This document shows, one piece after another, positions 2,964 through 57,750 of a DNA stretch of 64,000 nucleotides. The notes beneath the pieces were generated by a model. It made no database searches and was not told the origin of the DNA. It saw only the letters and a program-made list of their open reading frames with translations. Each line of letters starts with the position of its first letter. The stretch's first letter is position 1. Both the position numbers and the translations under genes were made by a program. This DNA comes from Octopus vulgaris (Eukaryota), in assembly GCA_951406725.2 (NCBI GenBank), contig OX597814.1, forward strand, positions 141,298,001 through 141,362,000, written 5' to 3'.

Positions 2964-3770
2964 TAACAATCGTGAACCCAATACTCCTAACCACAAAGCC
3001 ACGCGTCATCGAGTAACGAGGACGCCACAAAGCCCGAGGATCTAATCTTCGTTATAATGATCACGAGCCTAACAACTCACAACCACAAGACCACGAACCT
3101 TCATCCCTGTAGATATAGGAGGCAAGAAATAGTTTCCTCTTGGAAAAAACAAATCCAAGCAAACATGTGATCAAAGACATTCCTATAAAATAACGTTCCA
3201 TCTTCCATTTAAACCAGACATGGGCAATCTTGTTCGAGAAGCGGGCCACAAGAGATTTAGCTCGTCACTAGGCGAGCCGGACTATTAAAATAATTTATGA
3301 TATTTTTTCGTTAGGCGCGCTATTCAGAAATACCTGAGGGCTGCAGTTCTTCTGCGACTGACTTACACAATACATATAGGAACACATTTTGTCGAATTAC
3401 ATGTTCTTCTTTAACACTATAATTTAAGATGTGACAGAGATTTGGCTGTTAATTCTAACAGATCGATTGACCACTCGTAGTAGTATTTCAGAATAGGAAC
3501 TTACTGCATTAACAATAATCAGATAATATATTTGATCGAATCCGAAAATACGAAAGGTAAAGATTGCTTCAAATATAGAGACAGAATAAGAATAACGGTT
3601 AATATCTGCAGAAAAGTTTCATGTCCCATCAAGGTCAGTTTTGACGCTTGCCTTTCAAATTTCTGAAATATCCTTATGTACCTTCTACCAAATTTTAGGT
3701 GATACTCTCATGAAAAAATTTGTATCAATGTCACTTATTTTAGGCGGGGAAAAAATCTATTGAGCCACGA

Positions 3771-3843
3771 GGCTCCTGAATGATTCGAACCTTCGATCTC
3801 CAGTTTACTAGACTGGAGCTGTAACCAACTGATCTATGGAGTC
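3771..3843 (-). pseudogene. tRNA-Thr(AGT), probably a pseudogene
   Basis: GACTCCATAGATCAGTTGGTTACAGCTCCAGTCT-AGT-AAACTGGAGATCGAAGGTTCGAATCATTCAGGAGCC. Perfect anticodon arm, A/B boxes and a downstream T-run; mismatches in the acceptor, D and T stems. Confidence 0.75.
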
Positions 3844-14878: not shown

Positions 14879-15582
14879 CAGCAAAATCAAGGAACGGCCA
14901 TAATAGGCCATTCACCCACTAGAAATAACAGCCAAGGCTTCAACCGCAAAACAACATTAATTCCGTAAACCAGGAGAAAATTAAAAAAACATTTACCCTG
15001 TAATTCTTTATACGATGCACCGTTTCGTCTATTGTTTAATGGTAAACTAACCTGATTAAATTAAATCAAGCTAGTCTTCCATAGGCCGATAGATTCATCA
15101 GTAAAGAACGGCCAGATCGGAGCAGATATTTACACGAGGCACTTCCACCACTGTCTCAGCAATATCTGACCTAAAATTTTCAAATCATCGCACTCGCGCC
15201 AAATTTATCGGCAGCAAATATAAGCCGCCGATTCCATTACGGAATTAACCAGAAAATTCATAATTAATCAATATAGGGTGGCAAAAAATTTCGCAGAATT
15301 TTTTGCCACCAGCGGTCTAGTGGGAAAAAATTAAATAGTCATAGACCATTTATAAATTCAACAGCAAAATCAAGGAACGGCCATAATAGGCCATTCACCC
15401 ACTAGAAATAACAGCCAAGGCTTCAACCGCAAAACAACATTAATTCCGTAAACCAGGAGAAAATTAAAAAAACATTTACCCTGTAATTCTTTATACGATG
15501 CACCGTTTCGTCTATTGTTTAATGGTAAACTAACCGCTGGTGGCAAAAAAATTCTGCGAAATTTTTTGCCACCCTATATTGA

Positions 15583-15587
<5 letters not shown>
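14879..15587 (-). mobile_element. non-coding hammerhead-bearing element: 483-bp monomer, 1.36 tandem units plus a 55-bp inverted cap, in (TA)n
   Basis: 14879-15052 is identical to 15362-15535 (period 483). 15533-15587 is the reverse complement of 15263-15316. Confidence 0.85.
15004..15108 (-). ncRNA. type I hammerhead ribozyme
   Basis: ttcttta-CTGATGA-atctat...atagac-GAAAC-ggtgcatc-GTA-taaagaa. 7-bp stem I, canonical core, near-palindromic stem III, GUA cleavage triplet. Confidence 0.85.
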
Positions 15588-21212: not shown

Positions 21213-23375
21213 GATGTGTGGTGTAGCATGGTGGTGCTGATGTGGTGTGTGGTGTGGTGGTGTTTGGGTGGCGGGAGGCGAGAGTGGAGAGAAGAAAGGG
21301 TGAGGTGTGGGTTGGGATGAGGGTGGAGTAGGGAAGGGGTATGTGGGGTGGGTGTGAGAAGGAGTGCAGTGTGTGGGAGTGGAATGTATGGGATGGGGTG
21401 GGGTGAGATGGGATGTATAGGGATGGTGGTGTAGGGGTGGGGTAACGATGGAGGGGTGAGAATGAAGAAAGAGGGTGAAAGGAGAAGGTGGATTGGAGTG
21501 AAGAGAGGAAGTAAGTGTCAGAGCAAGGGAGGAGAGGTGGGTGAGAGTGAAGGGAGGAAATAGGTGTGAGAGGAAGGGAGGAGAGAGGAGGGGTTAGATG
21601 AAGAGGGGAGTAAAGTTGAGCCCATGTGTCGTAAAGGAGCGAAGAGAGAAGATTAATTCCTGGTCACGGCGAAGACGGGAGTCCGGATGGCCCCTGTGCA
21701 AGGACAATTCGAACACAGACAGGTGTTGTAAAGAATGACTGGTAGAGCAGAAATGGCGCGAAACCGGAGTGTCGTTGCCGAGTCTGATGTCTCGGACGTG
21801 TTCCGCGAACCGGTCAGCCAAGCGGCATCCCGTTTGACCGATGTACAGAGAAGGACAGCGAGAGTAGGAGATGCAGTAGATGACGTTGCTAGAAGTGCAG
21901 GTGAAGAAGTCAGTGATATGATAGGGTCCATGATGGGTGTCGGTGAGGATGGTGGTGTTGGAAATGTAAGGGCAAGTGTAGCAGCGTGGGCGGGAGCAGG
22001 GGAACGAGCCGAGTTAGGAGGTTGGTTTAGGGAAAAAACTGTGGACTATGAGATCACGTAGGTTGTGGGCTCATTTGAAGGAGGGGGTCGGTTGGGGAAG
22101 ATGTGCGAAGTGGAGAAGTCGAACTGGAGTCGCCGGAAGGCTCGGAGAAGGGTGGGTTGGAGAGTTAGGGTGGAGGGGTGGTAGGCGAGGGGAAATGGGG
22201 ACGGGTGACGGCGTGGCGGGTGCGGATGGAGAGAGCAGATGCACGGGCCACGGAACGTGCTCTGGCAAGGAGGTGTGGATAGTGGTGAGGGGATATCCAC
22301 ATAGGATGAAGTGGCGAGCCATGAGTTGAGACTGAATCACAAAGTTATAGATGTCACTGTAGAGCCTGCGCAGACGGAGGAATTGAGAATAGGGGATGGA
22401 GAGCTTGGTATGTTTAAGGTGGAAGGAGGAGAAGTTGAAGTATGAGTATGAGTATGTGTGTTTGTAGTGGATGGTGTTGAGGGTGGAGTGATGAATGCTG
22501 ACCGCAATGTTGAGAAAGGTGACGGAAGTGTCGGAAATATTGCAGGAGAAGTGGCGGGCAGGATGGAAAGATTGGACAAAACAGAGGAAGGAGTCTAGTT
22601 GCTCGCGGGAGAGTGAGGTCGCACCGATACAATCGTCAATATAACGACCGTATAGTTCAGAAGTGGGACCAGTGAAACTGGAGAATATTTGGGTCTCAAC
22701 GTAGCCACGAACAGGTTCGCATAGTTGGGGGTCCATTCTCGTTCCCGTGGCCCTCCTGAGAAATGTTGGTAAAAATCACCCGCGAACGAGAAGCAGTTAA
22801 GAGAGAGAACAAGTTCGGCTAGACGAAGAAATGTGGATGTGTAAGGTTGTGGGGTTGGGTAGGAGGTCCAGGTAGTGTTGGAGTGCACGAAGACCCTCGT
22901 GGTGAGGGATCACCATGTATAGACTCTTGATGTCAAGAGTGAACAGAAGTTTAGAGGCGTCAGGAGAGAAAAAGAAAGAGTTGAACAAACGAAGAGCATG
23001 GTTGGTGTCATGGATGTGAGAGGGGAGGGAAGCCACTAAGGGGGCAAAGACACGGTTAAGATATCTGGAGATAAATTCGATTGGGCAGTTGCAGGTGGAG
23101 ACGGTGGGGCGGCCAGGGTTGTTAGGTTTGTGGATTTTTGGGGAGGAAGTAAATTGTGGTGAGAGGAGTGTGGCCAATGAGGATAGAGGCGGTGAGGGGA
23201 GACAGGAGGTTATGGATAGTGGAGGACACCGTCTGTTGGTAGCCGGGCGTGGGGTTGGAGGGCAGAGGGCAGTAGACGGAGGGTTCTTGAAGTTGGCAGA
23301 GAGCTTCGGCCTTGTAGAGGTCCGCGCGCCACACCACCACGGCTTCACCATTGTAGGCCGGTTTTATGATGATGT
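21213..23375 (-). mobile_element. Neptune-type Penelope-like element, frameshifted (RT + GIY-YIG + low-complexity 3' UTR)
   Basis: VVWRADLYKAEA, PKIHKPNNPGRPTVS, LFTLDIKSLY, YGRYIDDCIG, SIPYSQFLRLRR, C-x-R-x-x-CYTC, NVIYCIS..LYIGQTG.RLADRFAEH, spread across several frames; stop at 21594. Confidence 0.9.
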
Positions 23376-24409
23376 CTTATGCCAACACCGGTTGTCAAGC
23401 GGTGGTAGGAAACAAACAAAGAAACAAAGACATACACATACACACAAACACAAAAACACATACACACAAACACAAAAACACATACACACGAACACACAAC
23501 GGGCTTTTTCAGTTTCCGTCTACCAAAAGACTTATATACATACATATGTTTGTGTGTGTGTGTGTGTACACGCATATGCACGCGTGCGCACAGACATACT
23601 CGCGCGCACATATATATACATATATATTCCTCCTTTGTAACGTGCATTTTCCCGTACTACAAATCTGAATGAGGGAGTGATAGAGATAGGGGAGAAAAAG
23701 AGAAGGAGGGAGTGAAAGGGGGACAAAGCGATGAAACGACTTAGTGATAGAATACGAATCTAAGAATTCACGGTGGCTTATTGTGACGACTTGCAAATAG
23801 CCACGCAATAATTCACAAGGTGGGTTTTAAGCGGTTGGCTAACCGTCTAAATATACATTAGTACATTAGGCAATTTAGTTCTAAATATACAAATCATAAA
23901 AACAATGGTTATGACTGCGACGCCTTTCAGAATAGGCTTGTTCGACAAAGGCTGATTGGGGGGGGGGGGACCCAAATAGCAATAGAAGAGACATGGTTTA
24001 TTTATTGATACCACATTTCATTACGTCACTACTAGCTACTGATATGTAGTTTAACCAGTCTTGATGACATCTGCTTGGTTAGCAAGTTCTTCTCTCATCC
24101 GATGAGCCGTCTGAAATGTAGTATCCTCTCAGTCACTTCTAATTCTGCTATAACGTACCCTTCTCTTTGGAACTAGCAAGATGTTTGTTACCCTTACCCA
24201 AGCTCTCAATCAATTCAAATTCTTTCTTTCTTTGAGCAGCTCACACTGCTATAGTTTAGAATTTCTACAATCTACTCAGATTTCTCTTATAGGCATAAAC
24301 TTGCAGAAATCCGTGAATTTTATGTATCATGTTCCTTTTCGTTTCCTCGGAGTAAATATTGGATCCATTTGTTTTTTGTTTTCTCGAAATATGCCACTGG
24401 GCTGGCATT

Positions 24410-32946: not shown

Positions 32947-33904
32947 GTGTTTCCCTAAAACTTGAGAACTACACAACCAATTTCATTCAAATTTTACACA
33001 TGCCTTCCTTAGGGTCCGGGGAGTGTCGCCGGCAAAAATGTTTTTAGCTTTTTGCCTAGGGCGAGCCCACAGCAATATCATATCTTCTCCACTATTTTAG
33101 TATTACGTGTTAAAAGTGAAACGAAAACGTTTCTCTATTTTATGTCAGATACTTTCACTTTAACAATAAAAATAATAATAATAATTGAATTATATGTGGT
33201 AAGTAATAATTAAAATCAAACTAAAGTATAATATAATCGTAACATAAAAAAAGTAAAAATAGCAATTGGTATAAAATTGCATCAATGACTTGAACTTGAA
33301 TAAGTAGTTTCACATGAATGGGAATAAATTAAAAATAAAATTAGCGTTCAGAAATGGAATAGTCCAGATGGATAATAAAAAATTAAATTAAAGAAAAGAC
33401 TATTGTCTATAAAGTATACAATGTAGAGAAAAAAGAAGATTTGAACATGGAGGAAACCACCTTCGAAAAGTGTCTTGGTGCGACTATGAAAGGTAAATTC
33501 GCCACAATAGAAGCAAGGTTCGAGTCAACGGAGCGTGCAAGGGAGTACTCGACTCGAACTTGCAAAGTGGAAATATTTTAATTTTACTTTTATATCGGGG
33601 ACGTAGGACGTCCCGGAAAAAAATTTTAAATGCCTCATCCCCCAGAAGTAGAGGTAGGCTGGACTGTAGCGACACTTCTATACAAGAGGGAGGGCAAGAT
33701 ACAATTGATCGAAATTACAAGAGACGGGCTAACAATTCCAGTCTGTTATATATTTTGAGTATTGTTATCACTAGCGATATCAAGATATAACCTTGTATTT
33801 TGTATTTTATGTGTAGATCTATATATATAGATGTACATGTAATATGTACACATATATACATGCACTAAGCACTATGACCCGGCAACAACGGGTCTTTAAT
33901 GCTA

Positions 33905-33905
<1 letters not shown>
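32888..33905 (+). mobile_element. non-autonomous Helitron in (TA)n
   Basis: 5' A|TCtttatatatataaa, (TCTG)n, 3' hairpin gacccg-gcaacaa-cgggtc (33877-33895), CTAG|T. Confidence 0.85.
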
Positions 33906-33951
<46 letters not shown>

Positions 33952-34109
33952 TACAAAATAAATATAAGAGAGTGGTCACTATATGGCTCACTCTAGCACC
34001 AGTTAATCCAAAAGGTTTCAACCACAAAAATACATGTTTCCCATGAAAGTCAGTACGATTGTTAGCTCACACGGACAGGGCAAATAAAAAATAACAAAAA
34101 TACAGATTA

Positions 34110-34191
34110 TTTTGGGACAATTGTTTCGCTATTAATGAATTAAATGTAATTTTACTTACAAAAAAATCCACTTGTAGCTCGTCAGCCAAAA
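34110..34191 (-). ncRNA. type I hammerhead ribozyme
   Basis: Exact reverse complement of 34793-34874. Confidence 0.85.
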
Positions 34192-34792
34192 CTATCTGGA
34201 TGAAATCCACTCAATCACACGCCAGATTTTACCATAACGATAAATACGCGTGTGGTTCAATTGATTACATCCGACGTTATAATTCAAATGCCCCAACTAA
34301 CAGCGCGCCAAACTCTCACGGAAAACAAATACTGCATTTAGAAATAAATGCAGCATAATTATAATTAATTAATAAGGGTGAGAGAATTAGATACTAATTT
34401 AATAGTATATCTATTCAATACCAAGTGGCCTAGTGCTCCGAGAAACCTGGATTATTATAATATTTTATAATATATTATAATATTTTTACAAAATAAATAT
34501 AAGAGAGTGGTCACTATATGGCTCACTCTAGCACCAGTTAATCCAAAAGGTTTCAACCACAAAAATACATGTTTCCCATGAAAGTCAGTACGATTGTTAG
34601 CTCACACGGACAGGGCAAATAAAAAATAACAAAAATACAGATTATTTTGGGACGTTTGTTTTCCGTGAGAGTTTGGCGCGCTGTTAGTTGGGGCATTTGA
34701 ATTATAACGTCGGATGTAATCAATTGAACCACACGCGTATTTATCGTTATGGTAAAATCTGGCGTGTGATTGAGTGGATTTCATCCAGATAG

Positions 34793-34874
34793 TTTTGGCT
34801 GACGAGCTACAAGTGGATTTTTTTGTAAGTAAAATTACATTTAATTCATTAATAGCGAAACAATTGTCCCAAAA
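34793..34874 (+). ncRNA. type I hammerhead ribozyme
   Basis: ttttgg-CTGACGA-gcta...tagc-GAAAC-AATT-GTC-ccaaaa. 6-bp stem I, canonical core, palindromic stem III, GUC triplet. Confidence 0.88.
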
Positions 34875-35180
34875 TAATCTGTATTTTTGTTATTTTTTAT
34901 TTGCCCTGTCCGTGTGAGCTAACAATCGTACTGACTTTCATGGGAAACATGTATTTTTGTGGTTGAAACCTTTTGGATTAACTGGTGCTAGAGTGAGCCA
35001 TATAGTGACCACTCTCTTATATTTATTTTGTAAAAATATTATAATATATTATAAAATATTATAATAATCCAGGTTTCTCGGAGCACTAGGCCACTTGGTG
35101 TTGAATAGATATACTATTAAATTAGTATCTAATTCTCTCACCCTTATTAATTAATTATATATAAATATATATATATATAT

Positions 35181-35387
35181 AAGTCAGTAAATGGTGGGAT
35201 TGTGTTAACCGCACGTGATGAAATTATAGAAGAAAAAAATAATAAGGCAGAATGCTAAATTGAAAGTACATTCTTTCTTTTTTCTTTTTTTCATTTTTTC
35301 TTTTTTAATTTTTCATACACCCACCCATTTTTATTAAATTGTACTTTCAATTTAGCATACTGCCTTATTACTTTTTCTTCTCCTATA
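35181..35387. mobile_element. short PLE 3'-terminus relic with inverted arms
   Basis: 35181-35258 resembles the reverse complement of the Neptune terminus at 44085-44165. 35225-35270 is inverted at 35340-35387. TA flanks. Confidence 0.65.
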
Positions 35388-35459
35388 TATATACAACTAT
35401 GTTTTATGTAGTCACTTTCTCTCGGACTTATGGACACTAAACCGATTATACACACACAC

Positions 35460-35553
<94 letters not shown>

Positions 35554-36687
35554 CAACGACGTGCACGCGTGTGTGTGTACTATATCACACCATATCACTT
35601 TCTACCAATGACGATTGCAACTATAACAATGACCAATGAAAGTAACATTTCATCTTAGGATGATAGATCTAACCTTTAAGCTACTCATTAGATTACTAAA
35701 ACCAAGCTGCGACTCATTACAAAGAACAGCTAACTGCCCGAGGAAGAAATGTTCTCATCATTTCCTTTTTTTTTTATCTTAAGAAAAACAATAAAACACT
35801 CCCAAAATAGGCTTGGTCATCCTTAGTTTAGTCACTTCAGGCAATATGTCTGCCAAATAATAAGTGTCGATGTTACATTTCTTTAACTTTTTTAGTTATT
35901 ATTAGTATTATTTTATTTATTTACTTTTTTGTAAGAAAAAACATCTCAAAGGAGTCAATTTAGTTGAGCAACTGCTACTTTTATCCACTCCTCATTTATT
36001 TTACTTCCGAACCCTTATCCGAGATAATCCCCACCTTTGTTATGCCTCTGCTATCCTACCTCAATTAAAATTGTTACCTGTGAATAAGAGAAATAATTGA
36101 GATACTAGAAGTCATTGTAGTTTTCTCCTGACTAATGTAGTTTGTATTTCGTATTTAACTAAACATTCGCTCTCTACTTCGAGTTTGGCCTTTCTTTTCT
36201 CCAATATTTGAATAGAATAAATTCACTTCTTTGCTTCAAGTCAGAAGTAATTATCTTTACTTGCAGCAAGATAAGGTACAAATGGTCTTGTTGCTGCTGC
36301 TGTTGTTGTTTAGACCCATGTTAACCGTGATCGAGCTCACCTGTGATCAAAACCAAGCGATTATCTTTAACAGGCACTGCAAAAAGCATTTAATTAAACT
36401 ATCACACACGCCCACACATATCCAGACACACACACATACGCGCGCTCGCATATGTATCCGTTTAATTCACTTTGGGCGAATGCCTCAGAATGTACTCTTA
36501 AAATCTGCTATGTATATATATGTACACACACATACACGCACACACATAAGTGTATGACATGTATGTATATAGTGGGTTTGAGGATATAGTGACTTTCTTA
36601 GGGATTATAAAATCCAGAGATCAACTGGTGTCATCAATGATATATTGGGAGAATTCTCTCAATATAAAGGGATAAACATCTAATATA

Positions 36688-37194
36688 CCGTAAATCCTCG
36701 AGTATAATCCGCATTTTTTCCCCCAAAATTTAAAGGCCAAAATCCCTAGTGCGTACTATATACGAGGTTAAAAATGAAAATTATTTTCTAAGCAATGTCC
36801 GAGTCACTATTTGCTGTCCGGCAATGTTTATTCAGAAGTATTTTGTGATGTCGGGCTCGAAAATACCTTAAGCTAAGCCTGGAAAGCAATGAAGTCATAA
36901 AAGGATCATCCGTATCTTGCAGTAAGCAACATTTATTAAACGTTATTACTGTTATTTCTTTATTTTCTGCAAACAAAATGCACAAAAAAGCTACACGTTT
37001 GCATTATCTTATATAATAATAAAGGACGTTACCGTATACATTTTTACAAACCAAGGACGTTATATAGACCTCCTTGACTCAAGTTAGAAAAGGGGTGCGT
37101 ATTATACACAAGGTTTAGGTTTTTCAGAGGTACAACCACCGAAAAATCCCCTGCATATTATACTCAAAGGCGGACTATACTCGAAGATTTACGG
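36688..37194. mobile_element. MITE of Tc1/mariner/pogo type
   Basis: TIRs ccgtaaatcctcgagtataatccgc / gcggactatactcgaagatttacgg with TA TSD. Confidence 0.85.
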
Positions 37195-38064
37195 TACATT
37201 TATTACTATAAGTAAACGGAGAAAAATACTGTGGATGCTAATTTTATTTGTATCACATTGAATATACATTAACATAAAAGAAGCATAAGAAGTACCTACA
37301 CATGTTTCAATCTGGTCACAATGTAAACAGTGCTTGTGTGTGTGTGTGTCTATGTTTGTCCTCCCACCGCCACTTGACGACCGATGCTGGTGTGTTTATG
37401 TCCCCGTAACTTAGCGATTCGGCAAAAGACACAGATAGAATAAGTAGTAGGCCTAAAAAGAATAAGGCCTGAGATCGATTTGCTCGACTGAAACCCCTTC
37501 ATGGTGATGTCCAGCATGGCCGCAGGCAAATGACACACAAATAAAAGAATACATATATATATTGGTATAAACTTCTGGCACAAGGTCAGCAATTAAGGGG
37601 TGGGTATAAGTCGATTACATTGGCCTTAGTGTCGGACTGGTACCTGTTTTATCTACTTTGATTGGACGAAAGGCAAAGTCGATCACAGCGGCACTTAAAC
37701 TCCGAACGTAAAGTGGGGGATGAGATGCCGCTAAGTATTTTGACCGGTGCGGTTCTTTAAAAAGATTTGTATTGACAGTGACTTCGAAGTTTCGATCAGC
37801 TAAGCTATCGACGTGTACACACACACATGCATTTATAAGTATATATATATATATATATATATATATTTACTTGTTTCGGTCATTTGATTGTGGCCATGCT
37901 GGAGCACCGACTTTGGTCGAACAATTCTTTGTAATCCTAGTACTTATTCTATCGGTGAATTTTGCTGAACCGCTAGTTTTCCCGGACGTAAACACACCAT
38001 CCTCGGTTGTCAAGCGATGATGTGGGTAGAAATATAGACACACAAATACATACACATATGTATG

Positions 38065-38110
<46 letters not shown>

Positions 38111-38163
38111 CATATATATATATACATATGTATCTATATATAAGTATGTATGTATGTATACGT

Positions 38164-38198
<35 letters not shown>

Positions 38199-38359
38199 CC
38201 AGCCAGAAATTGCAAATATAATCTGGAACTCGACTGAGGAAAGAAAACTCCGAATGACCCGTCCTTGTTTTCTTTGTATCGTCTATCTGGATGTTTTGTT
38301 GTCCTTTTTTGTATCACCTAACTCTCTGGATGTTTTACGTTCTTGTCCCATTTTAGTAT

Positions 38360-38396
<37 letters not shown>

Positions 38397-39191
38397 CACG
38401 GACTTCTTTCAGTTTCCATCTACGAAATCCACTTACAAGGCTTTGGTCGGCCCAAGGCTATAGCAGAAGACACTTGCTCAAAATGCCTCACAGTGGGACT
38501 GAACCCGGTACCATGGGGTTGGGAAGCAAGCTTCTTACCACACGGCCACGCCAATATACATACACATACACACACACACATACACACACACACAAACACA
38601 CACACATGTATATCTGTTGTAAATAATGTATATATAAGCACATCTATCTGTATATCTATGTATTGTTCGTTCATTTAGTTCACGTGGTAAGGGGACAACT
38701 CTTCTGTCACAGTTGAACACGCACGTGATAGGCACAGAAAAAAGAGGAAGTAATTTTAGAGATAGAAAAATAATAAAGACGATGAATTATATATTGAAAA
38801 CAATTTAGTCAGAGAAGAAGAGGACGGCACACATGACCGATGCAAGCACTCCTAAACTGATAACGTGATGGTGGTTACGGTGGTAGTAATCGTTATTTAT
38901 ACCAAGGTCAACCTCGATAGAACAAACTTCTGATGAAAGGTGAAACATCCCGCCATTTTCTTTAGAGTATTGCAGTGAGTCATAACACCACGTTATTCGT
39001 AACGGTAGAAAATAATGTTTTGTTCTAACCATGGTTTCACTTTTTGAACTACGACCAAACTGTGGAGCGTCATCTTCCAGGCTGTCAATCATATTCTTTC
39101 CCGCTATTAATTTTAGGCTCGTATTTGTTTCACTGATTTCTATATGATTCAAGTTTTTGACACACCATTGGTTTTTACACACACACTCACA

Positions 39192-39273
<82 letters not shown>

Positions 39274-39275
39274 TA

Positions 39276-39314
<39 letters not shown>

Positions 39315-39318
<4 letters not shown>

Positions 39319-41940
39319 AGGAAAAAATTTTTTTTAAATGCAGAATGCTCAAATGAAAGAAAATTTTAATAAAATGAGAAAATGATAAAATATATAAATA
39401 TATATATTTATTCAACCGGTTTTCGTCAATGTATGACTTGTCAAGAATATTTATGTTTTAAGAAGTTTTTTAAAAATTAGAAAGGGGAAAAAAAGAAAAT
39501 TGCAATGTTTTTTGTAAAAGAATAATGATAAAAATGTACAAAAATTAAAAAATAAGTTCTCCGATACATTGTGAGTTCGTTGTGTATCTTGAGTTTTATG
39601 GTTGTTTACCAAAAAATTACCTTGAGGTGTTAAGATCCAAAGGGATTAAGAGCATGTGATGTGTTGTGTTGTTAAATTCAGCATGTTGCAGGACAGGAAG
39701 TAGTAGTAATTGTGGTCCTGGTTCTTCAGTTCCTGTGTTGTGAGTAAGGGGAGACAACTCTTTTGAGTTCTTCAATAAAACCCAAATTATAAAACTATCA
39801 TTTTAGCTTCATTTGCATTATCTTTTTTATATAAATGCTTGTTAACTTAACTTTCAGATTTTAACACTTGATTTATATTATTTTCTAATAATATAAAACT
39901 GCATAGACAATTGCATTTCAAATTGTCATATCATTTATAATAAAAATGATAGTAGTAACAACAACAATAGTGAAAATGATATTTAAAGAATATAAGTTTT
40001 AGCTTGAAGTGGTGAATGCATGGTATCTTTATATATTTGTGTTAGTCCATCCATGAAGAGTGAGGTAGAGAAAGGAAGTTTGATCAACGAGGAGTTTGCA
40101 TATTAAGTTGTGTTTGGAATTTTTCAATAAAGAGATTCTCCTTGTTAATTCTCTCCTGTGTGGTGATCCCGTCTTTACATTGGTAGAAGGGGAATATATA
40201 GAATTTGGGGTTTAAGTCTTTAGCACATGAGTCTAAGTGGTCACTCAGTGGAATTTGTCGGTATTCCGGGAGATTTATTTGTTCTTTATGCACCGTTACT
40301 CGTTTACGTAACGGGAGACTCGTTTGTCCCACATAATTATGTTGGCAACCAGCGCATGTGAGAACGTAGATAAGGTTCTCGGAGGAACAGGAGAAGTTAG
40401 TCTTGATTTTAAACTTCGTACCTTGTTTGAAGGTAAATTCAGAGCCTTCAAGTAGAAAGGGGCAGGTACCACAGTTTGAGCGTGCACATTTTTTTACTGT
40501 TGGGGGTGGATGTGGTGTGTGAAGTTTGGCATTTGTCAAGAGTTTTTTTAAAGATTTGTGTTGCCTTTTGCATTTGAGGATTTTGTGTGTATTTATAATG
40601 TTTTTCATTTTTGGGTCTGTTGACAGTAGACTGAGGTTTTGTATGATTGTGGTGTATGCTTCGATATTTTTGGGGTTGTGGGTGGAAATGTATGGAAGTA
40701 TTTTGAGGTTGTGTGTGGTGTTAGGTTGGGTGGTTATCAGTGTAGTGTTGTCTAGTTCTTTGGCGCGTTTTATTCCATACTCTATAAGGGTGGAGGGATA
40801 TTGACGTTGTAATAGTGTTTTTTTGAGGTCTTGAAGGCGTATTTCTCGTGTTTTTGGATCCGAGACAATGGTGCATACCCTTTTAGCTAAATTGAAAGGG
40901 ATATTTGTCTTGGTGTGTTTTGGGTGGCATGAACTAAAGAGGAGGTATTGTTGTGAGTCTGTAGGTTTGTGGTAGATGTCTGTTATGATTTGGTTCTTAG
41001 GTGTTTTTATAATTAGGAGATCAAGGAATGGGAGATGATGTTTGCTTAATTCCATAGTGAATTGGATGTTGGGATGTATGTTGTTTAGTATGGTTTTGAA
41101 TTCCAGGAGTTTTTCATAAGGTTCTTTCCATATGATGAAACAATCATCTAAATACCTTTTCCAGTTTTCCATTAGGTAGGTGTGGAAAACATGTCCAAAT
41201 TTCTGGCTTGATATTTCATAGAGTGACAGTTCGAAGTAACCCATTATGAGGTTCGCAAGGACTGGTGCAGCCTTGGTACCCATCGCAATGCCACATTTTT
41301 GACGGTAGTGTGTGTCGTCGAAGAGAAAAAAATTGTTTGTCAGAATGAACTTAAGAGATTCTGTAATAAAAGACTTGTTAATGCGGTCAGGGAATGTCTC
41401 TGGGTGTTTTTCTAGCCAGAAGTCAATTGCCTCTATACCATACTCATGTGGAATGTTGGTGTAGAGGTTGATGACATCAAAGGATACCAGGAGTGCCTCC
41501 TCGTTAACTGTTTTCGGGAGGTGTTTGAGCATGTCCAGATCATCCCTAATGAAACTTTTGATGTGGGTAAGGAAAGGTTTCAAAAGGATGTCTAGGAAGT
41601 TACTCAGGCGGTGTGTTTCACAGGAGGTACCAGCCACGATGGGCCTTAGTTTTAGGTCCTCCGGTGCTTTGATGTTGATGTGGATGTCAGTGGAGAGTTT
41701 GCAGGCTTCGGTGATGTATTTGTTTTTATGGATTTTAGGAAGGCCATAAAAAAGGCTGGGCTTGCATTTGAAAATGGTGATATAATCCCTTTCTTTTTCT
41801 GTGAGTCCCTGACCGTGTTGGCGTATGAGTGTGGTGAGGTTTCTGATTGTTTTTTGCTGTTTGTAGTTGTTAATAACCTCATAGAAAATGTTATTGTTAA
41901 GCATGGAGAACACTAGGTGTTTATAAAATTCCGTTATAAA
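39315..41940 (-). mobile_element. Neptune-type Penelope-like element, left arm of palindrome (5'-truncated)
   Basis: Contains an uninterrupted RT-GIY-YIG ORF and a ~770-bp 3' UTR ending at (TA)n. Confidence 0.95.
40084..41940 (-). CDS. PLE reverse transcriptase + GIY-YIG endonuclease (N-terminally truncated, ~618 aa open)
   Basis: FYGLPKIHK, LRPIVAG, LVSFDVINLYTNIP, YRQKCGIAMGT, RYLDDCF, LPFLDL, HPKH, Neptune-type CARSNCGTC, NLIYVLTC..C...YVGQT...LRKRVTVH. The first 9 aa of the track ORF come from the antisense of the right arm. Confidence 0.95.
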   Translation of the reverse strand, partial: FITEFYKHLVFSMLNNNIFYEVINNYKQQKTIRNLTTLIRQHGQGLTEKERDYITIFKCKPSLFYGLPKIHKNKYITEACKLSTDIHINIKAPEDLKLRPIVAGTSCETHRLSNFLDILLKPFLTHIKSFIRDDLDMLKHLPKTVNEEALLVSFDVINLYTNIPHEYGIEAIDFWLEKHPETFPDRINKSFITESLKFILTNNFFLFDDTHYRQKCGIAMGTKAAPVLANLIMGYFELSLYEISSQKFGHVFHTYLMENWKRYLDDCFIIWKEPYEKLLEFKTILNNIHPNIQFTMELSKHHLPFLDLLIIKTPKNQIITDIYHKPTDSQQYLLFSSCHPKHTKTNIPFNLAKRVCTIVSDPKTREIRLQDLKKTLLQRQYPSTLIEYGIKRAKELDNTTLITTQPNTTHNLKILPYISTHNPKNIEAYTTIIQNLSLLSTDPKMKNIINTHKILKCKRQHKSLKKLLTNAKLHTPHPPPTVKKCARSNCGTCPFLLEGSEFTFKQGTKFKIKTNFSCSSENLIYVLTCAGCQHNYVGQTSLPLRKRVTVHKEQINLPEYRQIPLSDHLDSCAKDLNPKFYIFPFYQCKDGITTQERINKENLFIEKFQTQLNMQTPR

Positions 41941-44165
41941 ACTCCTGGTATCCTTTGATGTCATCAACCTCTACAACATTCCACATGAGTATGGTATAGA
42001 GGCAATTGACTTCTGGCTAGAAAAACACCCAGAGACATTCCCTGACCGCATTAACAAGTCTTTTATTACAGAATCTCTTAAGTTCATTCTGACAAACAAT
42101 TTTTTTCTCTTCGACGACACACACTACCGTCAAAAATGTGGCATTGCGATGGGTACCAAGGCTGCACCAGTCCTTGCGAACCTCATAATGGGTTACTTCG
42201 AACTGTCACTCTATGAAATATCAAGCCAGAAATTTGGACATGTTTTCCACACCTACCTAATGGAAAACTGGAAAAGGTATTTAGATGATTGTTTCATCAT
42301 ATGGAAAGAACCTTATGAAAAACTCCTGGAATTCAAAACCATACTAAACAACATACATCCCAACATCCAATTCACTATGGAATTTAAGCAAACATCATCT
42401 CCCATTCCTTGATCTCCTAATTATAAAAACACCTAAGAACCAAATCATAACAGACATCTACCACAAACCTACAGACTCACAACAATACCTCCTCTTTAGT
42501 TCATGCCACCCAAAACACACCAAGACAAATATCCCTTTCAATTTAGCTAAAAGGGTATGCACCATTGTCTCGGATCCAAAAACACGAGAAATACGCCTTC
42601 AAGACCTCAAAAAAACACTATTACAACGTCAATATCCCTCCACCCTTATAGAGTATGGAATAAAACGCGCCAAAGAACTAGACAACACTACACTGATAAC
42701 CACCCAACCTAACACCACACACAACCTCAAAATACTTCCATACATTTCCACCCACAACCCCAAAAATATCGAAGCATACACCACAATCATACAAAACCTC
42801 AGTCTACTGTCAACAGACCCAAAAATGAAAAACATTATAAATACACACAAAATCCTCAAATGCAAAAGGCAACACAAATCTTTAAAAAAACTCTTGACAA
42901 ATGCCAAACTTCACACACCACATCCACCCCCAACAGTAAAAAAATGTGCACGCTCAAACTGTGGTACCTGCCCCTTTCTACTTGAAGGCTCTGAATTTAC
43001 CTTCAAACAAGGTACGAAGTTTAAAATCAAGACTAACTTCTCCTGTTCCTCCGAGAACCTTATCTACGTTCTCACATGCGCTGGTTGCCAACATAATTAT
43101 GTGGGACAAACGAGTCTCCCGTTACGTAAACGAGTAACGGTGCATAAAGAACAAATAAATCTCCCGGAATACCGACAAATTCCACTGAGTGACCACTTAG
43201 ACTCATGTGCTAAAGACTTAAACCCCAAATTCTATATATTCCCCTTCTACCAATGTAAAGACGGGATCACCACACAGGAGAGAATTAACAAGGAGAATCT
43301 CTTTATTGAAAAATTCCAAACACAACTTAATATGCAAACTCCTCGTTGATCAAACTTCCTTTCTCTACCTCACTCTTCATGGATGGACTAACACAAATAT
43401 ATAAAGATACCATGCATTCACCACTTCAAGCTAAAACTTATATTCTTTAAATATCATTTTCACTATTGTTGTTGTTACTACTATCATTTTTATTATAAAT
43501 GATATGACAATTTGAAATGCAATTGTCTATGCAGTTTTATATTATTAGAAAATAATATAAATAAAGTGTTAAAATCTGAAAGTTAAGTTAACAAGCAATT
43601 ATATAAAAAAAGATAATGCAAATGAAGCTAAAATGATAGTTTTATAATTTGGGTTTTATTGAAGAACTCAAAAGAGTTGTCTCCCCTTACTCACAACACA
43701 GGAACTGAAGAACCAGGACCACAATTACTACTACTTCCTGTCCTGCAACATGCTGAATTTAACAACACAACACATCACATGCTCTTAATCCCTTTGGATC
43801 TTAACACCTCAAGGTAATTTTTTGGTAAACAACCATAAAACTCAAGATACACAACGAACTCACAATGTATCGGAGAACTTATTTTTTAATTTTTGTACAT
43901 TTTTATCATTATTCTTTTACAAAAAACATTGCAATTTTCTTTTTTCCCCTTTCTAATTTTTAAAAAAACTTCTTAAAACATAAATATTCTTGACAAGTCA
44001 TACATTGACGAAAACCGGTTGAATAAATATATATATTTATATATTTTATCATTTTCTCATTTTATTAAAATTTTCTTTCATTTGAGCATTCTGCATTTTA
44101 AAAAAATTTTTCCTTACTTATCATTTCTCCACGTGCGGTCAACACAACCCCACCATTTATTGATC
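41941..44165 (+). mobile_element. Neptune-type PLE, right arm (inverted near-identical copy; 3-bp deletion ~41975, +1 frameshift ~42385)
   Basis: 41941-44118 is the reverse complement of 39315-41494. ORF pieces 42149-42412 and 42825-43349 repeat the left-arm protein. Confidence 0.95.
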
Positions 44166-44650
44166 TATATATATATATATATATATATTTACATATATAT
44201 GAGTATGTGTGTGTGTGTGTGTGTTGATCTGATGATGTCTTCTTTGTGGATTCCTCTATCCCCTTCTGACACATGGTGCATGTAAGAACTTAATTTTCTC
44301 GAGGCGGTTAATGAAGGTACGTATGCTATTTAGGTTTATATTCCGACTTGATTATACGTGTCGAATTTCATGATAGCCTCTAAATCCACCGATCATAGGT
44401 GGTGTGTTCAGCCACTTTGCCGTTCAAAATCGACAGCTGTAGAAATGTACCTGAAATGAATGCGATTTTAGCCATCAGTATGCAGAACTACATCAAAACT
44501 ATATTTTTAAAAAAATAATAATCTGGTGAAAATTCGAATAACTTCAAGTGGTTGGAGGAGTTTAAACAAGATCTCTCATTGAAGCTACGAAACGGATTAT
44601 TGAAAATATGATAATTAAGGAAGCTGTAGTTGTTAATAAAATAATTTCTA

Positions 44651-46779: not shown

Positions 46780-47653
46780 CAGCCTTTGCCAAAAGTATTA
46801 GGCCACCCCAATATTTTGGGGTTCTGCTATCTCAATATTAATGAAACTCGTGCACATGGTAGATTATGGTACATTTCACAATATACATTAGTTTTAATAT
46901 CTGGTTGACCCTCCTTTAGCATCAATTATCACTTTTATACTGTACTGTACATATGCAACCAATTATGAGTAAGACCAACGTCTGAAATGAACTTATGTTT
47001 CCTTGATTATTTCAGAGATTTATGCTAAAGTACATTGTAGATACAGTTAATAAACAGTAAAATGCCTAAAACAAGGGAGTTGAATGAGTGTGAGCGAGGT
47101 CAAATCGTAGCTCATCGTGAAGATGGAATGTCTCAAAGGCAAATTGCTCAGAAGATGAAATATTCTTGATGTGAAGTGCAAACGACTCTCAAGCGCTTCA
47201 GAGAGACAAAAGATGTGAAAGCAATACAAAGAACAGGTAGTAAAAAAGGTTACATCACCTCGTGATGATAGGTCCATCATCCGTCAGTTGCCCAGAAGCA
47301 GAAGAAAAACATCGTCAGAGCTCCGTGCGGACTTCAACGTGGCAAGTACTTCACAAATATCAACCAGAACTGTTAGAAGAAGGCTTGTAGAGTACGGTCT
47401 GAAAGGCTGCAAACCAGAAAGAAGCCGTGGGTTTCTGAAGCGAATATGGAAAAACGTCTTCAGTGGGCCAAAACCCGCTCAAATTGGACCAGTGAGCAAT
47501 GTTCGAGAATCATATGATCTGATGAAAGTAACTATGAAGTACAATAGTACATGTATTCAATCAACATATAAACTTAATGTAACTGGTTTGTTGCCCAAAA
47601 TATTGAAAAAAGTATCTAACATTGAGGTGGCCTAATACTTTTGGCCAAGGCTG
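46780..47653 (+). mobile_element. internally deleted Tc1-like element
   Basis: 28-bp TIRs cagcctttgccaaaagtattaggccacc / ggtggcctaatacttttggccaaggctg with TA TSD. MPKTRELNECERGQIV...STRTVRRRL..GL...SDES is the HTH region up to the first catalytic D. Confidence 0.9.
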
Positions 47654-50756: not shown

Positions 50757-51899
50757 CAGGTCATCCCATAAGTTCTGTTCGAATTCTGAATAAAGAAAAC
50801 AAGTGATCAAATGTTATATTTAATTGAAATTTAATCATCAATGTACTTTCCCTGGTTATCTATGACTTCCTTTCATCTATTTACAAACTTTTTAATCCCA
50901 CCAATGTAAAACTCTTTTGGTTTCAAAGCGAAGAACTCTGAAATGTCAGTTTCGACCTCCTCCTGACTTACGAAAGCTATGTCCCCCAAATGATTCTGTA
51001 AACTACGAAACAAATGGTTGTCTGAAGGAGCAGGGTCAGGAAGGAGAATAAGGTGGATGGGGAATTTTTTCCCAACCAAGCTCTTCAAACGCTCTAATTA
51101 CTGACAGTAGACTTAAGCATTGATTGTTGCATTAGGTGAATTACTCCTTTGCAATCCCACCAGATAGAGATAAGAACCTTTTTCCATGAAATTCCATTCT
51201 CGGTTGTTGTTGAGCCTTTTCCCCTTTACCAAGCCACTGTTTACGACGTTTAACATTTCGATAGAAGATCCATTTTTCGTCACCAGTCACAACTCTATCC
51301 AAAAAGAGTGAAATGAGTTCGCGAGAATGGAGATAGCAGCAGATGTCAACTCGGGATCTGCAGTTGCTTTCGAACAATTCATGAGGCATCCATTTTCCAA
51401 GTTTAGGAACCTTTCCAAGTTGTTGAAGATGACGATGAACAGTTGTATGGTTTGAACTAATCTTTATTGCCAATTCTTCAACTGATAATGCAGGATTTTC
51501 TTCAAGTAATACCTCAAGGAGCTTATCAAACCCAACTTCATCTTCAAGGCTGAAATCTCCACTTCTAAATTTTGCAAAACATCTTCTACAAGTTATTTCA
51601 TTCAAGCATTCTTTCCCATAAACTGAGTGTATGTTTCGAGTCTCTTCGGCTGCAGAGTTTCCTTTTTGTACTCATAAAGCATAATGTGCTTCAAATGCTC
51701 TTTGGATACTTCCATGTTAGAAAGGGTTTCAATCAAAGAAATTTTAATAATATTATTCTGTAAAATAATATTTAATTAGTTTAAACATACACAAATGCAT
51801 AAAAATAATTTCTAATTCCATTAGACATTCTAAAATACTATTAAAATTCATTCAATTTTAAAAAAGGTAAAATCGGACAGAACTTATGGGATGACCTCA
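50756..51899 (-). mobile_element. mariner element with both TIRs; transposase pseudogene 50831-51715
   Basis: TIRs tcaggtcatcccataagttctg / cagaacttatgggatgacct; WMPHEL, VTGDEKW, PDPAPSDNHLFRSLQNHL; frameshifts and a deletion. Confidence 0.9.
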
Positions 51900-56589: not shown

Positions 56590-57750
56590 GGGTTTGACTT
56601 TTGGGAAAAAAGGCCGTGTTGGATGGTGAATTTGTTTGCATTATATAATATAATGTTTAATTATATCACATTATATTATACAGTGGGTATATGTGAAGTT
56701 CGTATGTTTGTGTGATAAGGGAGTTCATCAGTGGAGTATGTATTTTTACATGTGTGCAGTTTGTACGTTTTATTATTCAATATTCACGTCTAGGGAAAGA
56801 AGCTTTCTTTGAAATGTGGGAGTATAAATATTGCTTGTGTATGCAGGGAGACACAGTTTCATCTCTAATATTTTAAATGCTATCTGTTGACTGGTTGATA
56901 TTTAAATTTTCAGTGATGCAGAGCTCACATTTGATACACCCTCCCCGGTATTTTCTGGCGTTGGTAATGATGCTCCATATTATTTGGGGGTTGCTTGCTC
57001 CTCCTTCTTTCAATATCCATATCATACTGGATAAGGATGTCGCATGTCTTTTATCTTTGTCCCTGAATGACGTCAGGTGTTGTGTGCATCTTTCCTTGAA
57101 CGAGTTGCCCGTCATTCCGATGTACGTCTTTGTAACTCCATTGGTATCCATGATTTCGGCCTTGTATATAATTTATTTTCCAAGACAGCTACTATTTAGA
57201 GGGCTGCGGTTTGGAGATCTACAGTTATCGTACCTCTCTCGGGTCTTGGTGTGTTTATTTTTATTGTGGTTGAGTATTATTGACCCTGTATTTTTCAAAA
57301 GTGTCTTTATCGGTAGATAGATTGGAGACGCGCCTGCTAATATAATTAACTAATTGTTTAATGATTGCTGGTGGGTGGTTGGAGCGTGTGTCTATGTACG
57401 AAACATCCTCATTTGGTTTGTGGTAGGGTATACATTTGTCTGTTCTAAGGTTCATGTTATTACCTAGAAAATGGACTTCTTTAGGGTTGGTACTAATTGT
57501 GGTTCTTAGACCTGATTGTTTAAGTATATTACATCCATAGCGTGTCCGTTTTTATTCTGTACCACTCCCAGACCTTCGTCCCTATATGAAACCATGTTGG
57601 ATTCTTTTATTTCTTTTCTAAAGGGATTAGGTCAGCTATTTTGGCACCATCATAGCTCCCTCTTGCTACATCAAATAGTCCAATTCCGATATTTTTACCT
57701 AATGTGATTGGCTTGAAAAAATAAGATATTAAGATATCTTTCTTAGCATG
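56590..57750 (-). mobile_element. Penelope-like element of a second clade (Naiad-like), degenerate
   Basis: FDVARGSYDGAKIADL, SYRDEGL, YHKPN..YIDTRSNHPPAIIKQL, NCR...PLN..CL, IIYKA...TYIGMTGNSFKER..QH..SF, CIKCELC. Confidence 0.85.

Follow-up and report, generated by a model that had tools for sequence, protein, structure and literature searches.

Insertions of Penelope-like elements (PLEs) typically carry an inverted, 5'-truncated copy and a tail of 30-40 bp on one side only, as described in passages of Craig 2021 (PMC8557442), and text from Arkhipova 2013 (PMC3846280) names head to head as the commonest inverted form. According to sections of Frangieh 2024 (PMC11167929), a purified PLE protein can cut both strands and extend each of them, two internal start sites delimit the tail, and the protein is predicted to be a dimer with a dimer-helix region at residues 27-173. 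The formation of tandem and inverted PLE insertions is called an open question in the same passages of Craig 2021 (PMC8557442), and the later insertion steps are left unvalidated in those sections of Frangieh 2024 (PMC11167929). Here we describe a locus in a 64,000-nucleotide (nt) stretch of contig OX597814.1 (the window, whose own positions are used throughout) in which two 5'-truncated copies of a Neptune-type PLE lie head to head, with a (TA)n tract on either side. Such a palindromic architecture is already known for PLEs and is not a surprise. The value of the locus is as a clean test case: a young (TA)n-targeting family, near-identical longer copies in public data, and two hammerhead neighbours of the same insertion anatomy.

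The original prediction, a palindrome of ~4.8 kb with two near-identical arms, holds in its coordinates as well as in its spacer length. The left arm (39315-41494, 2,180 nt) and the right arm (41941-44118, 2,178 nt) flank a spacer of 446 nt (41495-41940) and are 99.5% identical over 2,183 alignment columns; their length and identity exclude a chance origin. Twelve of 2,187 columns differ, the last of them beyond the arm end. The right arm is missing 3 nt at 41974 and has a 1-nt insertion at 42383, a frameshift that splits its frame into 156 and 333 amino acids (aa). The other differences, all in the 3' non-coding part, are two clear substitutions within 36 nt of each other and several homopolymer-length changes. 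Both arms have private differences relative to the public contig X1, and four indels of the right copy are not present in most public contigs compared. The spacer had been taken as simply further 5' open reading frame (ORF) sequence, which is correct for 440 nt (41495-41934); the last 6 nt (41935-41940) are instead junction filler. The features of the locus are these:

39281 to 39314, no strand: (TA)n tract, remnant of the target, abutting the left 3' end
39315 to 41934, minus strand: left copy, 2,620 nt, 5'-truncated, ending at the family's 'short' 3' end
39409 to 39449, minus strand: hammerhead-like motif of the left copy, U3-A8 core variant with one extra A
40084 to 41934, minus strand: open frame of 616 element codons (41934 to 40087) for reverse transcriptase (RT), linker and GIY-YIG
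41495 to 41934, minus strand: ORF part of the spacer, reached by the left copy only; public contigs run spacer and arm as one linear element
41935 to 41940, no strand: junction filler, 6 nt, repeating with flanking bases the 8-mer at 41921-41928
41941 to 44165, plus strand: right copy, 2,225 nt, with a deeper 5' truncation, the frameshift at 42383 and the 'long' (tailed) 3' end
43985 to 44025, plus strand: hammerhead-like motif of the right copy, with a 5-bp helix I, U3-A8 core, 4-bp helix II and palindromic helix III
44119 to 44165, plus strand: PLE tail, 47 nt, at one end only; 85 of 108 columns match the older relative at 35172-35272
44166 to 44186, no strand: (TA)n tract abutting the right 3' end

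The left copy retains a long open frame. Some 618 open codons had been counted; the stop-to-stop frame is in fact 628 aa long (40084-41970, minus strand), and element sequence makes up 616 codons only, the first 12 codons spanning the junction outside it. RT motifs occur in the frame at 151 (SFDV), 215 (GIAMGT) and 260 (RYLDD), and the match to RVT_1 is above the Pfam cut-off (E=7e-8). The GIY-YIG match is below the cut-off (E=0.0012), and the assignment is also backed by motifs and by the relatives' precomputed PF01541. A single ORF thus joins an RT with PLE motifs to a C-terminal GIY-YIG domain, as in endonuclease-containing (EN+) PLEs. The linker reads C483-X4-C488-XX-C491 (CX4CxxC), followed by 24 residues to C516, and the endonuclease residues C527, C530, H549 and H566 (CCHH), together with R545, E599 and N611, are invariant in 13 of 13 aligned sequences. 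A PDB sequence search with the family alignment gave no match.

These motifs, rather than an RT tree, bear out the earlier naming of the element as Neptune: the endonuclease is C-terminal, the linker is of full length and CCHH is present, which together support a Neptune-type assignment. By eye, the linker spacing fits the Neptune and Naiad rows and not the short Nematis spacing in the text of Fig. S2 of Craig 2021 (PMC8557442), a source whose cited passages treat Neptune as paraphyletic. Three other placements were ruled out: Naiad/Chlamys by the C-terminal rather than N-terminal position of GIY-YIG, Penelope/Poseidon by the CX2-5CxxC linker, and Hydra by the presence of CCHH and a linker that is not CxCX5C. 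The microsatellite insertion bias of Neptune elements is also seen, with (TA)n at both ends of the locus and after the short ends in contigs X18 and X1. Among the relatives (1,712 returned among 8,000 candidates scored), the best full-length proteins are 59% identical. Of the proteins with a named source, fragments from Octopus sinensis/bimaculoides come nearest (71-80% identity), which suggests an octopod host; bivalve matches reach at most 61%, and no database protein is more than 80% identical to the family.

Homology to these relatives begins at 41934/41931, which corresponds to residue ~145 of proteins of ~755 aa. The left copy therefore has no N-terminal ~145 residues, DKG among them, and the N-terminal GxKF motif is seen in the relatives only. 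The missing part covers the region that matches the predicted dimer helix (residues 27-173) of the PLE studied in vitro, as given in the cited sections of PMC11167929. The upstream pseudo-long terminal repeat (pLTR) expected of an autonomous copy is absent from both copies of the locus. Because the first ~145 residues are missing, the locus is likely a dead insertion, unable to move itself, and the suggestion of possible activity gains no support for this copy.

A contig of run X1 (2,564 nt) matches the locus with zero substitutions over 1,566 nt and has ~998 nt more on the 5' side, in agreement with the youth that had been proposed. In contigs of runs X18, X1 (record 1) and X6 (record 22), spacer and arm belong to a single linear element, and the sequence beyond 41934 codes for the DKG region (hand translation); X6 and X18 have several fixed differences from the locus. 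At least half of the element's words occur in 20 of the 24 listed sequencing runs (9 studies), all as contigs and none among those listed recorded as RNA. Because these three contigs match and extend 5', and because 20 of 24 runs contain the words, the family is, to judge from its sequences, young and multi-copy, with longer members. A further X1 contig (record 3, 2,046 nt, aligned at 43366-43626) shares part of the 3' region at ~90%, has 10x the depth of the ORF contig and is possibly a related non-autonomous element. Neptune-like ORFs also occur in bacterial genome bins (SUP05, Bacteroidota and Candidatus Thiodiazotropha; L081, L082, P0028, P0042 and P0062), most likely as animal host contamination.

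Both 3' ends point outward, each against (TA)n. The left end, 39315, is common to other family copies, which then enter (TA)n (runs X18 and X1; loose ends at 44099). The right end runs on for 47 nt (44119-44165), and because this stretch matches the older relative at 35172-35272, it is the element's tail and not flank. A tail on one end together with an inverted 5'-truncated copy is the arrangement of EN+ PLEs. The mirror image does not extend past the element's 3' end: aligned to each other, the two flanks give at best microsatellite against microsatellite, 600 nt out of register. At the centre, the 8-mer repeat formed by the filler and its flanking bases was matched within 30 nt by 0.9% of 200,000 random fillers. 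It resembles the templated filler of end-joining; it is AT-rich and could alternatively be a target remnant.

We consider it probable that the locus arose in a single insertion event, in which both cut ends of (TA)n primed reverse transcription and end-joining fused the resulting complementary DNAs (cDNAs). A full-length copy elsewhere would have supplied the RT-GIY-YIG protein, which would have cut both strands of (TA)n, a sequence that reads identically on either strand. From each cut end, cDNA synthesis would then have begun at one of two internal start sites; neither cDNA would have reached full length (2,620 and 2,225 nt), and host end-joining would have fused their 5' ends. The products of such an event (two copies, differing 3' ends, (TA)n, filler and a missing N-terminus) are observed, and we infer the mechanistic steps by analogy with a Poseidon-clade element. 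The two kinds of end also occur apart from this locus, the short left end in X18 and X1 (followed by (TA)n) and the right tail in the older relative at 35184-35272. The layout, head to head with one short and one long end, recurs in the (TA)n-flanked insertions 33952-35159, 14880-15585 and 35184-35383, and is shown by an unrelated PLE locus, L039.

Several points weigh against this scenario. The target-site duplication is not readable inside (TA)n, and an empty site was not seen. The true divergence of the arms is uncertain because most differences are homopolymer indels, the usual type of long-read error. In contigs from 4 of the 20 runs that contain the element (7 joints listed, with 3,049 pieces and 192 loose ends outside the list), no listed contig bridges 41934/41941 on one strand, so that the copy is unconfirmed outside the assembly, and the listed joints include no further strand switch; the insertion may be private. 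The in vitro data that inform the scenario come from a Poseidon-clade element, not Neptune, in the sections of Frangieh 2024 (PMC11167929), and cited text of Arkhipova 2013 (PMC3846280) explains head-to-head forms by self-priming on an antisense template.

The last point corresponds to a distinct origin, in which the locus is real and the inverted copy stems from one cDNA or antisense RNA that folded back to prime itself or switched template. The same text (Arkhipova 2013, PMC3846280) proposes self-priming in rotifer Penelopes because palindromes are seen where the inverted copies join, and short overlaps are present at the junctions of both hammerhead elements in the window. The main joint, however, has no palindrome and carries a 446-nt spacer and filler instead. 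A simple fold-back of one cDNA is also hard to reconcile with the 47 nt that only the right copy has, since these cannot have been copied from the left cDNA. We regard this origin as unlikely.

Missing bridges and arms that are 99.5% identical, with mostly homopolymer differences, are also what an assembly or library artefact might leave behind, be it a chimera formed by foldback or amplification, or two loci wrongly joined; the junction is unbridged among the listed pieces of all 4 runs. Against this stand a symmetry that ends at natural element ends, two ends that differ in the manner typical of the family, unmirrored flanks, and an older diverged copy 4 kb away with the same layout (44 of 48 columns matching between its arms). 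An artefact is thus quite unlikely. We judge it highly improbable that two insertions entered one (TA)n tract independently, or that two copies recombined later. (TA)n does attract repeated insertions, as seen for 33952-35159 and 35184-35383, which share one tract, and the clustering of the two arm substitutions within 36 nt also speaks for such an origin. Only 6 nt and no (TA)n separate the arms, however, and a second insertion would place its 3' end, not its 5' end, at the (TA)n cut.

The tail is on the shorter arm in 5 of 5 callable insertions (four in the window and L039), a pattern noticed after the fact, and the short-ended arm extends further 5' in all five. Tail lengths in the four window insertions and L039 are ~47, ~44, ~125, ~98 and ~44 nt. 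The count leaves out L056, which is not callable, six further loci with inverted repeats (L010, L017, L019, L021, L022 and L035) and L037, where they lie at contig ends. Both L039 (3305-5596) and L056 (3774-5796) are unrelated PLE copies with inverted 3' pieces at their 5' ends; in L039 the tail is on the short inverted arm. The position of the tail suggests that two start sites for reverse transcription are used in a set order. Such an order would be expected if the halves of a dimeric RT-endonuclease, each extending one end of the cut (TA)n, followed one another along a single RNA. We put forward only tentatively, as an idea that could well be wrong, a general rule by which the short-start arm always reaches further 5' and the tailed arm trails, coupled to a start signal of 13-14 nt borrowed by octopod hammerhead retrozymes. 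Tail polarity is not stated in the literature passages searched, which comprised neither figures nor subscription papers; it is possibly depicted in Fig. 2 of Craig 2021. Were the bias and the terminal motif described below true genome-wide, they would support a model with two start sites and name the start signal that retrozymes borrow.

A feature absent from the original prediction is a hammerhead-like motif with a U3-A8 core in each arm. Its predicted cleavage, after 44020, is ~98 and ~145 nt before the two 3' ends. A descriptor written after the motif was seen matched in 0 of 1000 shuffles, and a variant X18 loose end at 43971 keeps helix I and the core, with changes at position 7 and in loop II. 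Rfam did not call a hammerhead: at the gathering score its single match was tRNA-like (3770-3843), and among 55 sub-cut-off matches at E<=5 over 33800-44300, mostly microsatellite-driven, there was no hammerhead family. The hammerhead of EN+ PLE terminal repeats is represented here by the variant motif at 43985-44025, with cleavage as a prediction. U3-A8 variants are described for PLEs in passages of Cervera and de la Pena 2014 (PMC4209133). Of the 82 loci in our collection, 13 have minimal hammerhead motifs 3' of the PLE ORF, without exception on the sense strand (L072:2216, L004:1993 and 12 other matches), and the L072 hammerhead carries the U3-A8 core. A further candidate, at 38930, was rejected on the stem test.

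Two other hammerhead-bearing elements lie nearby. The insertion at 33952-35159 is young and retrozyme-like, with ~1.3 and ~1 monomers head to head between (TA)n tracts; it has canonical type I cores at 34799 (plus strand) and 34185 (minus strand) with a 51-nt stem II, and the 5' boundary of its left arm is 3-11 nt upstream of the predicted cut site. The element at 14880-15585, also between (TA)n tracts, is a hammerhead-like partial tandem with a period of 483 nt, a core near 15101 (minus strand) and a ~55-nt inverted 3' piece. Sharing the (TA)n tract of the first is the insertion at 35184-35383, a 200-nt miniature of the older relative, head to head, with the tail on the left arm and 44/48 columns matching between arms.

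The tailed ends of the main element and of both hammerhead elements (h1 and h2 in these comparisons) carry a similar motif of 13-14 nt. Main and h2 match at 13 of 15 positions (6 of 5000 shuffles), and h1 and h2 also resemble each other (21 of 5000); main against h1 is not significant (1014 of 5000), nor is the end of the unrelated L039 against the motif (4421 of 5000). Random flank triples equalled the similarity in 55 of 20,000 cases; all of these resemblances were recognised after the fact. Counts of motif matches (3 against 0.54 expected; 6 against 0.12) were rejected as circular, the patterns having been derived from the matches, and a GTTGAAT motif found in all three elements was dropped for its inconsistent position relative to the ends. 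The short ends show no similarity among the elements (2453, 2875 and 964 of 3000 shuffles), and four comparisons of the main 3' region with the two hammerhead elements gave no significant extended homology (20, 21, 93 and 194 of 200 shuffles).

These similarities bear on the idea that the main element mobilises the hammerhead elements in trans. For this copy, which has neither N-terminus nor pLTR, the idea is unlikely to hold; for the family it is plausible, given the similar terminal motif at the tailed ends. Retrozymes are argued to be non-autonomous PLE derivatives in the cited part of a preprint (bioRxiv 10.64898/2026.07.22.740005). The mobilising partner is not fixed, however, because other PLE clades occur in octopus genomes: the supplement of Craig 2021 (PMC8557442) has, in the portion cited, Naiad rows for octopus genomes, and text from PMC13282606 gives 31 young PLE families in O. 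vulgaris.

The two near-identical arms had also been proposed to act as a read-through hairpin feeding small interfering RNA (siRNA) production or ADAR hyper-editing. We find this function, combined with mobilisation of the hammerhead elements by this copy, doubtful, though compatible with the models of origin. In its favour, the two arms could base-pair along 2.18 kb, an octopod is the probable host, and the family's sequence is present in runs guessed to be RNA. In rotifers, small RNAs switch polarity across inverted Penelope halves, as described in passages of PMC3846280. Set against these points, no locus-specific transcript is shown, the protein has no N-terminal ~145 residues, neither copy has an upstream pLTR, and none of the 195 window ORFs (at least 55 aa) matches a host-gene family by Pfam, a search that short exons would escape; two match transposases. 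By inference, sense transcription from a pLTR would run away from the centre, and a 2.2-kb hairpin would form only if an outside or antisense promoter read through the locus. A>G and T>C changes make up 3 of 10 and 10 of 43 differences in X1 and X6 (guessed to be RNA) versus 11 of 41 and 10 of 30 in X2 and X18 (guessed to be DNA); contigs drop rare variants, so these counts are uninformative on editing. If the locus is transcribed, the 446-nt spacer offers an internal control for siRNA made from the hairpin and for editing by ADAR.

Elsewhere in the window, an old, frameshifted PLE of another family (~21600-23376, minus strand; 23-27% identical to the main family's relatives) has the CX2-5CxxC linker, and weak tblastn matches (E about 9e-4) from two PLE relatives at 56876-57551 (minus strand) are perhaps a decayed PLE. 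Tc1/mariner transposase remnants (PF01498, PF17906) lie at 47219-47632 (plus strand) and 51144-51671 (minus strand), and the second possibly has its terminal repeats in a 28-nt inverted pair (50758-50785/51870-51897). The tRNA-like Rfam match (3770-3843, minus strand, 35 bits) is possibly the head of a short interspersed nuclear element.

The comparisons that follow rest on the cited passages of each source. Among described systems, the biochemically characterised PAc/Poseidon element of Anolis carolinensis (PMC11167929) resembles the locus in its two 3' ends separated by the tail, its AC-rich tail region, its AT-rich target and a hammerhead upstream of the ends. It differs in belonging to another clade with no linker and in having its ends inside the ORF start; here tblastn found no N-terminal ORF homology in the 3' region. 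The Penelope elements of Adineta vaga (PMC3846280) share the head-to-head arrangement, the optional tail and 5' joints of microhomology type, but what is inverted there is mostly about as long as a pLTR, and the joint has palindromes, whereas here a 446-nt spacer and filler are found. Like the minimal PLE hammerheads (PMC4209133), our motif is of type I with a short helix I, G10.1-C11.1, U3-A8 covariation and a palindromic helix III predicted to pair as a dimer; unlike them, it has no bulged base between 9 and 10.1 and an extra A before helix III. The two neighbours agree with non-LTR (long terminal repeat) retrozymes (bioRxiv 10.64898/2026.07.22.740005) as hammerhead-bearing partial tandems inserting like a PLE; they differ in that they share with the family only the short terminal motif and no extended pLTR homology. 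Set beside Neptune-clade PLEs (PMC8557442), the locus stands out by a long inverted copy (2.2 kb, most of the ORF) and a longer tail (47 nt against the 30-40 quoted in Craig 2021). The locus otherwise shares with Neptune-clade PLEs a single ORF with RT and C-terminal GIY-YIG, a CX2-5CxxC linker and CCHH (Arkhipova 2006, as cited in PMC8557442), as well as a microsatellite target, 5' truncation, an inverted truncated copy at the 5' end, a one-ended tail and a hammerhead motif in the 3' repeat (PMC8557442).

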